The position numbers were made by a program, and so were the translations under genes. The notes under the pieces are model-generated. The model did not search any database. It was not told the DNA's origin and saw only the letters and a program-made list of their open reading frames with translations. Source: a bacterium (GTDB lineage: Bacteria > Patescibacteriota > Minisyncoccia > Phycocordibacterales > UBA2100). Taken from it: a stretch of DNA of 64,000 nucleotides. Shown here one piece after another: positions 10,465 through 17,343 of this stretch. How positions within the stretch are numbered: position 1 is the stretch's first letter; each line of letters begins with the position of its first letter. The DNA is taken from positions 1,066 to 65,065 of the forward strand of contig RFQR01000003.1 of assembly GCA_009924895.1 (NCBI GenBank), written 5' to 3'.

Positions 10465-10487
10465 TCGTGTCGGGCCGCTGGGAATCG
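10465..10487 (+). repeat. Distal 23-nt direct repeat of the tRNA-Pro 3' end plus 5 nt of trailer
   Basis: tcgtgtcgggccgctgggaatcg is identical to 10633..10655. Confidence 0.8.
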
Positions 10488-10594
10488 GTCAGGTATATTA
10501 ATTCTGTCGTCACAGAATTATTTGCACGACCCTGACTCGGCTGTTTTGCTTATGCGCAAAACATGCCTCCGTCTTTCGATTCCCAACGCAGCGG
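10487..10594 (+). repeat. Copy A of the tRNA-trailer structured repeat family
   Basis: ggtcagg, then hairpin1 aattctgtcgtcacagaatt, then ttgcacgaccctgactcgg, then hairpin2 gttttgcttatgcgcaaaac, then catgcctccgtctttcgattccc. Confidence 0.7.
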
Positions 10595-10637
10595 TGTACT
10601 GACACTACTGCTGCGACCCGCACACACTTCGTTCGTG

Positions 10638-10708
10638 TCGGGCCGCTGGGAATCGAACCCAGTCTACATGGTCCCAAACCATGCGTACTACCGGTATACT
10701 ACGGCCCG
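10638..10708 (-). tRNA. tRNA-Pro (anticodon UGG), no encoded CCA
   Basis: Acceptor CGGGCCG/CGGCCCG, anticodon arm CATGG-TTTGGGA-CCATG, T-arm CTGGG-TTCGATT-CCCAG. Confidence 0.85.
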
Positions 10709-12711: not shown

Positions 12712-12782
12712 GCGGGCATAGTTTAGTGGTAGAACGATACCTTGCCAAGGTATAGATCGGAGTTCGATTCTCCGTGCCCGCA
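12712..12782 (+). tRNA. tRNA-Gly (anticodon GCC), no encoded CCA
   Basis: Acceptor GCGGGCA/TGCCCGC, anticodon arm ATACC-TTGCCAA-GGTAT, T-arm CGGAG-TTCGATT-CTCCG. Confidence 0.85.
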
Positions 12783-12839
12783 CAAAACAATAAGCGAAGC
12801 GTTTGTTTTGGCTGGCACAGGAAAGTGCCTGCGCACTTT

Positions 12840-12942
12840 CCGTGGAGAATCGAAAAGCGGAATCATGTTTTTGCAGCAGCAAAAACGGATGAGCTAGGGT
12901 CGTGCGGCTTTGTGTGCGGCGGCGCACAAAGAACGCCTGACC
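12840..12942 (-). repeat. Copy E of the tRNA-trailer structured repeat family (antisense to tRNA-Gly GCC)
   Basis: The reverse complement reads ggtcagg, then hairpin ctttgtg..cacaaag, then ccgcacgaccctagctc, then hairpin gtttttgctgctgcaaaaac, then catgattccgcttttcgattctcc. Confidence 0.7.
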
Positions 12943-12993
12943 GATCGAGTGCCCTCCATGCTTGGGAGATTCGAGTGACTGCACAAAAGAGCT

Positions 12994-13497
12994 TTAGGTT
13001 GAAATAATGTCATTTTTACCGACGAAGTAACCCTCGGTCATTTCAAGTTCTATTGGTTCAGATAAATATTGAATTGTATTTTTCGCAACTGCATTTTCAA
13101 TGAGTTGATTGGAGTATACAGGACTCACACCTTCTGAACACGAGAGGGTAATGTGAGGGTATTTATTAGTTGATTTCGGGTTTTCGACCAGCAACGCATC
13201 ACCACGCTCATCTGATATACGTGCAAGAACTTTTATTCGACATTTACGCCCAACATCGATACCGTCAACTGAGCCTGGTTAAAAAGCGATTGTTGAGTGG
13301 TGCGCCAGAACTCGTTTATGTTTCGGTGGGAATTGCGAAATGAGGTCCGGGACGTTATTTACAAACAGAGCTGTGTAGACCGGTACTATCGCTTCTGCTT
13401 TTTCTAGCCCCTTACGATAAAAATGGTTTCCAATTTTACAACATCTCCCGCCCGTGGCTTTTCTTTCATGGTGACATTCTAGCATCCTACGCAACAT
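12994..13497 (-). pseudogene. LigT/ThpR-like 2H phosphoesterase (RNA 2',3'-cyclic phosphodiesterase) interrupted by one in-frame TAA
   Basis: The two H-x-T/S-x motifs (HHSTIAF and HITLS) lie in the same frame, split by a TAA at 13279..13281. Reading through gives a ~167 aa protein: ...HHSTIAF*PGSVDGIDVGRKCRIKVLARISDERGDALLVENPKSTNKYPHITLS.... Confidence 0.55.
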
Positions 13498-13546
13498 GAC
13501 TATAGGTCACAGATATTTGCTTACCTCGGCAAAAAGGGTCTTTTGT

Positions 13547-13639
13547 GGTCAGAGATAATTTCTGCTCCGTCGAGCAGAAATTTCCACGACCCTGCCTCCG
13601 CCGTTTTCTCTGCTGAGAAAACATGCGTCCAACTTGCAC
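13547..13639 (+). repeat. Copy B of the tRNA-trailer structured repeat family
   Basis: ggtcag, then hairpin aatttctgctccgtcgagcagaaatt, then ttccacgaccctgcctccg, then hairpin gttttctctgctgagaaaac, then catgcgtccaacttgcac. Confidence 0.7.
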
Positions 13640-13683
13640 AAAAGCAGAAAACCTGGCGTTAGCCAGGCTTTCTGTTTTTAGGT

Positions 13684-13776
13684 GGTCAGGAATAATGCAC
13701 TTGTCGCCACTCATGCATTTTCCCGACCCGGACTCGTCCGTTTTTGCTACTGCAAAAACATGACTCCGTCTTGCAC
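13684..13776 (+). repeat. Copy C of the tRNA-trailer structured repeat family
   Basis: ggtcagg, then aatgca..tgcatt, then ttcccgacccggactcg, then hairpin gtttttgctactgcaaaaac, then catgactccgtcttgcac. Confidence 0.7.
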
Positions 13777-13782
13777 TACGCG

Positions 13783-13815
13783 AAAAGAGACTGGCGCAGG
13801 CCAGTCTCTTTTCGT
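13783..13815. terminator. Hairpin terminator between the repeat array and tRNA-Arg
   Basis: gagactgg-cgcagg-ccagtctc flanked by T-runs (ttttcgtctt). Confidence 0.5.
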
Positions 13816-13820
13816 CTTAG

Positions 13821-13892
13821 TGCACCCGTCAGGACTTGAACCTGAAATAGCGCTTCCGAAGAGCGCCGTGATATCCATTTCACCACGGGTGC
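13821..13892 (-). tRNA. tRNA-Arg (anticodon UCG), no encoded CCA
   Basis: Acceptor GCACCCG/CGGGTGC, D-arm GTGA..TCAC, anticodon arm GCGCT-CTTCGGA-AGCGC, T-arm TCAGG-TTCAAGT-CCTGA. Confidence 0.85.
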
Positions 13893-13904: not shown

Positions 13905-14588
13905 CTATCGTTTTTTTACGAAATGTGCAAAAAGCAACTTCTGAAAAAATTGCATGGTGCGAAGTGTTCTTATTCCTGGAATTTCCAACCTTAAGCAACC
14001 TTTGTAGTTAGGTCTCTTTTTGTATTGCAATCCGGTTGGTTTATAAATCGTTTTCAAGAACTGCCCCAGCGGAACCCCGAGCTCTTTGGACCACCACTCT
14101 TCACACCGCTCGTGCGCGTATGACTTATGAATATACAAGCGGAATCTCATCTCATTTTTGGAAAACTTCAAAAACTTTTCTGCCCAGAGAACGATAACAT
14201 TCATCATTTCGCTATCAGAGTTAACAAACTGGAATGCACTGCTTCTCTTTGCTCCCTCAGCCCAGTACAGAGAAACTCCGGCGGTGAAAAAAGAATCCTC
14301 GGCAAAGTTTGTAAACATATGTTCGCATTCTTTAAACAATATTGCTTCCCTAGCAAGTCGTGCATTTCTGTGAGCGGATGCTGCACGTATTCTACCTTTT
14401 GTTACATTTTTACTAACTCGATTCAGGAGTGACCTCTTCTCGTCTTTTGTTAAAGGAAAATCTTTGAGCCACAGTGACAGTAAACTTTTTGCAACGGGCA
14501 GTATTTGTCGTATCTCACGGTAACTCAAGCCCCTCCTTCTTAATTGCATAGCCTGCTCTCTTTCTGAAACCAGTTTCCTCATGTACAT
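13905..14588 (-). CDS. HTH + LAGLIDADG-like protein, paralog of 8552..9247
   Basis: LRRRGLSYREIRQILPVAKSLLSLW (HTH), AGVSLYWAEGAK (LAGLIDADG-like), WSKELGVP. It ends 12 nt before the tRNA-Arg 5' end. Confidence 0.5.
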   Translation of the reverse strand: MYMRKLVSEREQAMQLRRRGLSYREIRQILPVAKSLLSLWLKDFPLTKDEKRSLLNRVSKNVTKGRIRAASAHRNARLAREAILFKECEHMFTNFAEDSFFTAGVSLYWAEGAKRSSAFQFVNSDSEMMNVIVLWAEKFLKFSKNEMRFRLYIHKSYAHERCEEWWSKELGVPLGQFLKTIYKPTGLQYKKRPNYKGCLRLEIPGIRTLRTMQFFQKLLFAHFVKKR

Positions 14589-16548: not shown

Positions 16549-17343
16549 CTACATCTTGAGTTCTATCGAAACAGGGCAATGATCAGAACCAAGAATATCA
16601 GGATGTATTTCCGCCTTTTTTACCGATTTTTTGAGCGAATCGGTGACAAAAAAATAATCGATTCTCCAACCCACATTACGCGATCGAGCGTTTCCAAAAT
16701 TACTCCACCAGCTATAGTGACCATTGCCCTTGTGGAACATGCGAAAAGTGTCCACAAAACCCGCTGCAATAATCTTATCGGCTCCCTCTCGCTCTTCTTT
16801 TGTAAAACCATGCTCTCCCTCATTTTGTTTTGGGTTTGCAAGGTCATCGGGCGTATGAGCAACATTTAGATCACCGCAGAAAATAACAGGTTTTTCACTT
16901 TGGAGCTGTTTGCAGTAGAGGAGGAAGGCTGGGTCCCAATGTTTATGACGCATCTCAAGTCGCGAAAGGTCTGGTTTCGCATTCGGTGTATAGCAATTCA
17001 CGATGACAAAATCCTCGTATTCTGCTGCGATAACCCTCCCTTCGGCATTCAAATCACCATAGTCGTCGCGGAGGCGAAACTTTTTCATGATTGTTTCAGG
17101 GAACCCAAATCGAACTGATACTGGTTTCACTTTTGAAAATATAGCGGTACCGCTATAGCCTTTCTTGGTTGCAGAGTTCCAGTATTCTTCATATTCAAGA
17201 AGATCGACCTCCGACTGGTGCTCCTGTGCCTTCGTCTCTTGGAGGCACAAAATATCGGGTTTCAGTTGTTCGACCGCGGGAGTGAAAAGTCCTTTGCGAT
17301 GCACTGCCCGTATACCATTTACATTCCATGAAACGAGTTTCAT
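16549..17343 (-). CDS. xth: Exodeoxyribonuclease III
   Basis: MKLVSWNVNGIRA...DILCLQETK...GDLNVAH...SDHCPV. Confidence 0.9.
   Translation of the reverse strand: MKLVSWNVNGIRAVHRKGLFTPAVEQLKPDILCLQETKAQEHQSEVDLLEYEEYWNSATKKGYSGTAIFSKVKPVSVRFGFPETIMKKFRLRDDYGDLNAEGRVIAAEYEDFVIVNCYTPNAKPDLSRLEMRHKHWDPAFLLYCKQLQSEKPVIFCGDLNVAHTPDDLANPKQNEGEHGFTKEEREGADKIIAAGFVDTFRMFHKGNGHYSWWSNFGNARSRNVGWRIDYFFVTDSLKKSVKKAEIHPDILGSDHCPVSIELKM

Follow-up and report, generated by a model that had tools for sequence, protein, structure and literature searches.

A gene for a miniature 2H phosphoesterase, located on the minus strand at 12994..13497 of the window (the whole 64,000-nt stretch of DNA that was analysed), was shown to be interrupted by a single in-frame TAA codon. 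The evidence presented here indicates that this is probably a recent and real AAA to TAA nonsense mutation that has inactivated a dispensable, single-copy gene for a mini-CNPase-like phosphodiesterase. An earlier note on this DNA had put forward three options for the interruption, namely a fresh nonsense pseudogene, a sequencing error and stop-codon read-through, and the first of these was the best supported. The host of the gene is an uncultured, ultra-small, Paceibacteria-like CPR/Patescibacteria bacterium.

The interrupted reading frame and its homologues

Translation of the minus-strand frame from 13497 to 12994 gave 72 codons, a TAA, 94 codons and a second TAA, the read-through product being MLRRM...AHHSTIAF, stop, PGSVDGI...HITLSC...DIIST, stop. 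The two motifs HHSTIAF (13302..13282) and HITLS (13155..13141) were found to share this single frame, as claimed in the earlier note, and the TAA was likewise the sole interruption, with neither a frameshift nor a second stop. The coordinates in that note were also found to be correct; the strand had been left unstated and is the minus strand. The gene contains the following features:

12994..13497, minus strand: the whole interrupted gene, 504 nt (72 codons, TAA, 94 codons, TAA), of which the part at 13407..12997 is conserved in homologues
13282..13497, minus strand: N-terminal ORF of 72 aa, with strand 1, helix 1, strand 2 and the first catalytic motif; under efficient termination, the sole expected product
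13282..13302, minus strand: first catalytic motif HHSTIAF (H-x-T-x-x-F), directly preceding the stop; H66, H67, T69 and I70 are invariant
13279..13281, minus strand: premature in-frame TAA, the complement of plus-strand tta; the same in the assemblies L008 and L009 (see below)
12997..13278, minus strand: the downstream 94 codons in the same frame, expected to be translated only upon read-through, with five of the eight secondary-structure elements; 143.9 bits on their own against the family HMM
13141..13155, minus strand: second catalytic motif HITLS (H-x-T-x), inside the PF08302 match; H115, T117 and S119 are invariant
12994..12996, minus strand: natural stop codon, TAA, at the point where homologues end

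The read-through protein matched 286 proteins from public genomes and metagenomes (best E = 1e-53, 61-63% identity), and the best matches extended over 75-88% of the query, including sequence before and after the stop. More than 280 of the homologues were intact, 116-209 aa long (median 139.5 aa) and 50-63% identical, and aligned straight through the stop. All named homologues were from CPR/Patescibacteria (Parcubacteria, Paceibacteria, Colwellbacteria and Berkelbacteria). In an alignment of 27 sequences the gene retained 20 of 20 invariant residues, and both histidines and both threonines were invariant across 27-72 homologues. A tblastn search of the window with the two closest homologues gave one ungapped alignment from 13407 to 12997, across the TAA, and no match to a further copy of the gene. 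Judged from these alignments, the homology of the read-through frame to the 2H family is far above chance, and the alignment to this family on which the earlier note had made its reading depend was thereby found. The statement that read-through would give a normal enzyme also held, but the length of about 167 aa given for it had to be corrected: the conserved domain is about 137 aa, close to the median homologue, and the first approximately 30 of the 167 codons had no counterpart in most homologues.

The stop aligned with K44 of the closest homologue (P0001), the residue directly after the strand carrying the first motif. In the homologues this column contained K in 61 sequences, R in 26, E in 14, Q in 7, N in 3, A in 2 and M in 1, with AAA or CGN as the codon in homologue DNA. 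A sense codon, for which the earlier note had proposed to search in orthologs, is thus present in relatives and is mostly Lys (AAA). The local minus-strand sequence, GCT TTT TAA CCA, corresponds to TTY AAA/CGN CCN in homologues, and the simplest change would be a Lys codon AAA altered to TAA by an A to T substitution at the first codon base (plus-strand position 13281). No relative, all being at most 63% identical, had a stop at the same codon, and no member of the family was split among the 286 homologues. The closest relatives in genome and metagenome contig scans were only 47-56% identical, and the next neighbours beyond the same species showed at most 63% identity for the 2H gene and at most 58% for the adjacent ORF227.

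State of the gene and reality of the stop

A family HMM was built from 71 intact homologues and used to score 49 held-out intact members. The read-through sequence reached 213.9 bits compared to a median of 212.2 bits (range 183-246) for the intact members. Apart from the stop there was no decay, i.e., no frameshift, no second stop and no lost invariant residue, which points either to a recent lesion or to continued selection on the downstream part; at sequence level, the intact remainder fits both a recent lesion and selection for a read-through product. The locus carries a real disabling lesion in a codon that specifies an amino acid in relatives, as expected of a pseudogene by nonsense mutation, which would in addition yield no functional full-length product. 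Termination right after the first HxTxxF motif would leave a 72-aa fragment consisting of strand 1, helix 1 and strand 2. Since this fragment would lack five of the eight structural elements as well as the second catalytic histidine, the enzyme is expected to be inactive, and the dispensability of the gene would explain why the loss is tolerated. Inactivation of an accessory gene by a nonsense mutation is an ordinary finding of little consequence.

It is unlikely, although it would account for the fully conserved downstream half, that the gene is still used as a pseudo-pseudogene in which a few ribosomes read through the TAA by means of a near-cognate Lys, Gln, Glu or Tyr tRNA. A low level of full-length enzyme would let selection keep the downstream half, the stop column tolerates K, Q and E, which are residues that near-cognate tRNAs would insert, and the base at +4, C, does not provide the strongest context for termination. 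Surveys have reported that in-frame stops are widespread in prokaryotic genes and that some of these genes are translated at a low level (PMC7918605, PMC9122581). Such pseudo-pseudogenes resemble the present gene in having one nonsense codon in an otherwise intact sequence and in posing the same question of whether the gene is dead or leaky, but the stop here is TAA, the least favourable codon for read-through; the stop singled out as leaky is TGA (PMC7918605). Besides UAA being generally the least leaky stop, TAA was shown to be the commonest terminator in the window, where it ended 22 of 48 non-overlapping long ORFs (at least 150 aa), compared to 13 each for TAG and TGA, and TAA-C, the context of the internal stop, normally ends six of these 48. 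RNA downstream of the stop was found to fold no better than shuffled sequence (z = 0.23), so that no stimulatory structure was detected there, and none of the four tRNAs of the window, Gly(tcc), Pro(tgg), Gly(gcc) and Arg(tcg), is a suppressor or has a UUA anticodon. The absence of the stop from the available relatives (at most 63% identical) also argues against read-through. The more specific proposal that UAA read-through with Lys, Gln or Glu keeps a tuned-down or conditional RNA-end-healing enzyme at a low level appears quite improbable; if it were true, the enzyme might act on RNA ends arising from the structured tRNA-trailer elements of about 140 nt described below.

A two-piece enzyme, with the halves made separately and reassembled, each contributing one HxT motif, would be compatible with the 2H fold, which is pseudo-symmetric with one motif per half, but is very improbable. 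The earlier note had proposed that a TTG start keeps the second half open. This TTG, at 13194, is the first in-frame ATG, GTG or TTG and lies 28 codons past the stop within a conserved beta-strand, so that initiation there would delete strand E56-66, which makes a two-piece enzyme implausible. Furthermore, no ribosome-binding site was found, no gene caller called the second ORF and the family contained no split member. The TTG is merely the first start codon that the ORF lister reports and does not constitute evidence for a second gene.

The mutated base sits at the junction of a T-run and an A-run, where a true AAA codon could in principle have been misread (T4A3 as T5A2). However, comparison with independent assemblies leaves a sequencing or assembly artefact with next to no probability. 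The exonuclease III protein encoded in the neighbourhood (16549..17343) showed an exact match on 11 public contigs, two of which were retrieved: L008 (ENA ERZ27247967, a 388-kb contig) and L009 (Logan SRR31802062). The 504-nt gene was 100% identical in both, TAA included, and no polymorphism was found within it across the three assemblies. Outside the gene both contigs, which come from other samples, differed from the window: L009 had three SNPs in 4.4 kb, and L008 had a single SNP, an indel of 15 nt and one additional 216-nt repeat unit. A fourth dataset, the GEM catalogue, lists precisely the 72-aa truncated product, as an ORF that ends exactly at the stop. A search of 5.8 billion protein clusters found no intact allele (>63% identity), despite the presence of the species on 11 contigs. 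The same TAA in assemblies that differ elsewhere, together with the absence of a called intact allele, excludes the sequencing-error option of the earlier note, and the stop, which occurs in all assemblies available for the species, appears to be fixed or, at a minimum, to predominate in the populations sampled.

Altered genetic codes (TGA) occur in some CPR lineages, but reassignment of TAA, or its efficient suppression by a tRNA dedicated to this purpose, is scarcely credible in this host and was ruled out by stop usage in the 48 long ORFs, since long conserved ORFs end in all three stops, the 2H gene itself ends in TAA where its homologues end, and the window contains no tRNA with a UUA anticodon. 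TAA is an ordinary terminator in the host genome.

Family, fold and predicted activity

The 2H superfamily is defined by two H-x-T/S-x motifs with hydrophobic x (PMC5434554), and HHSTIAF and HITLS are both present in one frame of this gene. The earlier note had described the product as a LigT/ThpR-like 2H phosphoesterase. The assignment to 2H was confirmed by both motifs and by the 286 homologues, but the assignment to LigT/ThpR was not: ThpR has the extended motifs HxTxxF and HxTxxR (PMC4201822), and the second motif of the present protein, HITLSC, is without the ThpR arginine. Neither the HxTxxF plus HxTxxR pair nor a match to a curated ThpR/LigT model was found. What the protein shares with LigT/ThpR (E. 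coli ThpR, PDB 4qak; PMC4201822) is the superfamily, the two-lobed fold and the first motif HxTxxF.

The single significant Pfam match was to PF08302 (tRNA_lig_CPD, the CPD of fungal tRNA ligase), located over the second motif. Scores were 24.0 bits for the read-through sequence, 25.1 bits for the C-terminal half and 23.3 bits for P0001, compared to a cut-off of 23, and the match is marginal, covering about 50 residues (model positions 172-225 of 250). NCBIfam gave no match for the protein, and a profile search of PDB sequences showed nothing meaningful (best E = 0.019, an engineered I-CreI).

An AlphaFold2 model was made for P0001, the closest homologue, with 71 aligned sequences; it had high confidence (pLDDT 95.2, pTM 0.88) and showed a two-lobed alpha/beta 2H fold with strand 12-17, helix 20-26, strand 38-43, strands 56-66, 70-75 and 86-91, helix 99-109 and strand 114-129. 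A Foldseek search of the PDB with this model matched dozens of entries of the CNPase catalytic domain (TM 0.67-0.71, E about 1e-4) as well as the Candida Trl1 kinase-CPD structure 6u05 (E = 1e-3), so that the closest structural neighbours are CNPase and Trl1 rather than other 2H clades. Among the PDB matches were the CNPase mutants T232A and F235L, which fit the HxTxxF spacing. Judged from the model, the family belongs to the CNPase/Trl1-CPD branch of the 2H superfamily, as a miniature stand-alone form, and not to LigT/ThpR.

By analogy to these relatives, the intact enzyme would be expected to open 2',3'-cyclic phosphates at RNA or nucleotide ends by hydrolysis, yielding a phosphomonoester; in CNPase and Trl1-CPD, the nearest structural relatives, the product is a 2'-phosphate. 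The catalytic domain of vertebrate CNPase (PDB 2xmi) is about 215 aa long compared to about 137 aa for the CPR core, with 14-20% identity, and CNPase has an N-terminal kinase-like domain and a membrane anchor, whereas the CPR protein has neither, is bacterial and has a predicted activity. The fungal Trl1 CPD (PF08302, 6u05) is linked to the CPR protein by the Pfam and Foldseek matches, and its chemistry, from RNA 2',3'-cyclic phosphate to 2'-phosphate, would presumably be shared; however, it is fused to ligase and kinase domains, whereas the CPR protein stands alone. No ligase or Tpt1 partner was found among the genes flanking the 2H gene or its homologues.

The family (P0001-P0120) consists of stand-alone CNPase-like 2H proteins of approximately 130-150 aa, compared to about 215 aa for CNPase and about 176 aa for ThpR. 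No account of this 2H family in Patescibacteria was found in a literature search. These uncharacterised stand-alone CNPase-like proteins, the named ones all from CPR, number several hundred and count as some of the smallest 2H enzymes. In annotations, the appropriate label for the locus is a pseudogene of a CNPase/Trl1-CPD-like 2H phosphoesterase rather than two hypothetical ORFs or empty space. More interesting than the pseudogene itself are two by-products of the analysis: this miniature CNPase-like 2H family and a tRNA-trailer element of about 140 nt without a match in Rfam.

The inter-tRNA slot and its trailer elements

On the strand of the gene, the order was shown to be ORF227, tRNA-Arg(tcg), two tandem repeats of about 140 nt and the 2H gene, followed by the convergent tRNA-Gly(gcc). 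The tRNA genes, the adjacent ORF and the copies of the trailer element are located as follows:

13905-14588, minus strand: ORF227, with CPR-wide homologues
13820..13892, minus strand: tRNA-Arg(tcg), upstream of the 2H gene and on the same strand
13540..13822, minus strand: two tandem trailer copies (13677-13822 and 13540-13685) between tRNA-Arg and the start of the gene
12800..12950, plus strand: trailer copy after tRNA-Gly(gcc), the inverted-repeat partner of the upstream copies
12712..12783, plus strand: tRNA-Gly(gcc), convergent with the 2H gene
10480..10624, minus strand: trailer copy directly after tRNA-Pro (84.7 bits with a covariance model from three copies)

The 2H gene had a GC content of 0.419 and a GC3 of 0.351, compared to 0.487+-0.026 and 0.478+-0.046 for the long ORFs of the window. 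These deficits of about 2.6-2.8 standard deviations suggest lateral acquisition. Two related genomes keep the order CCA-adding enzyme, ORF227, tRNA-Arg, X, tRNA-Gly, where X is never the 2H gene, and the neighbourhoods of 2H homologues elsewhere were unrelated and not conserved. The low GC, the variable slot and the unconserved neighbours argue for an accessory gene, and the 2H gene was probably acquired laterally into a variable slot between tRNA genes, judging from its composition and surroundings. The loss of such an accessory gene could be without cost. The nearby genes include, 1.1 kb from the 2H gene, one for a bacterial CCA-adding enzyme that carries an HD domain. The HD domain of the E. 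coli CCA-adding enzyme has 2',3'-cyclic phosphodiesterase activity, and one may speculate that the nearby enzyme could make the 2H enzyme redundant.

The slot between tRNA-Arg(tcg) and tRNA-Gly(gcc) contained the 2H pseudogene in the window (12712-13892), an HTH paralogue in the related locus L011 (4695-5641) and DUF2784 and NUDIX genes in the related locus L013 (2092-3157), and tRNA-Gly was inverted in the window compared to both. ORF227 showed no Pfam match and had at least 500 homologues across CPR of about 225 aa, a few of them with a weak HTH_23 match; it gave one 100% match and then nothing above 58%. It was found between the gene for the CCA-adding enzyme and tRNA-Arg(tcg) in the window and in loci L011-L014, which represents a conserved, uncharacterised pairing of a gene and a tRNA. 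In a Paceibacteria MAG (L004), a 2H homologue at 3001-3327 adjoins a divergent tRNA-Ser pair, 2692-2781 (minus strand) and 2905-2991 (plus strand), one of which was called by ARAGORN with the unusual anticodon ACT.

Inverted repeats of 84 nt and 45 nt bracket the 2H gene and were identified as trailer copies of the two convergent tRNA genes. A mobile cassette carrying the 2H gene was considered and rejected, the repeats being tRNA trailers and an extra copy being present after tRNA-Pro, 3 kb away, without a 2H gene. The trailer element was always in the orientation of the tRNA and contained three stem-loops. Covariation was strong: among three copies, 19 base pairs were changed on both sides, compared to 7.6+-2.1 for shuffles and at most 7 for slid registers. 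The G-U pairs were compatible with the tRNA-sense strand alone (-59 compared to -48 kcal/mol). The conserved core reads CATGTTTT-N10-AAAAC-NGNN-GAG-NNN-GGGTCG. No Rfam match was found for the trailer, BSnc120 with 32 bits compared to a gathering score of 114 being sub-threshold noise, and the core pattern was absent from viral contigs and from the loci of relatives. The trailer element is unannotated and may, as an observation, be more novel than the interrupted 2H gene.

The trailers were bounded by direct repeats of the 3' part of the tRNA, starting in the T-loop, at the following positions:

12766-12787 and 12968-12988, plus strand: tRNA-Gly(gcc), degenerate
10633-10654 and 10465-10486, minus strand: tRNA-Pro, exact (22/22), GATTCCCAGCGGCCCGACACGA
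8486-8507 and 8311-8332, minus strand: tRNA-Gly(tcc), exact (22/22), GATTCTCCCATCCCGCACTAAA

The element after tRNA-Gly(tcc) was a diverged variant of the trailer. The pattern of direct repeats is similar to the attL and attR sites that arise when an element integrates site-specifically into a tRNA gene, but the trailer insert is only approximately 135-175 nt long and encodes no protein. L008 (10384-10800) contained two tandem trailers after tRNA-Gly(gcc), corresponding to its extra 216-nt unit, and the window (12775-12962) contained one; this difference in copy number reflects variation between strains or, alternatively, the collapse of a repeat when the window was assembled.
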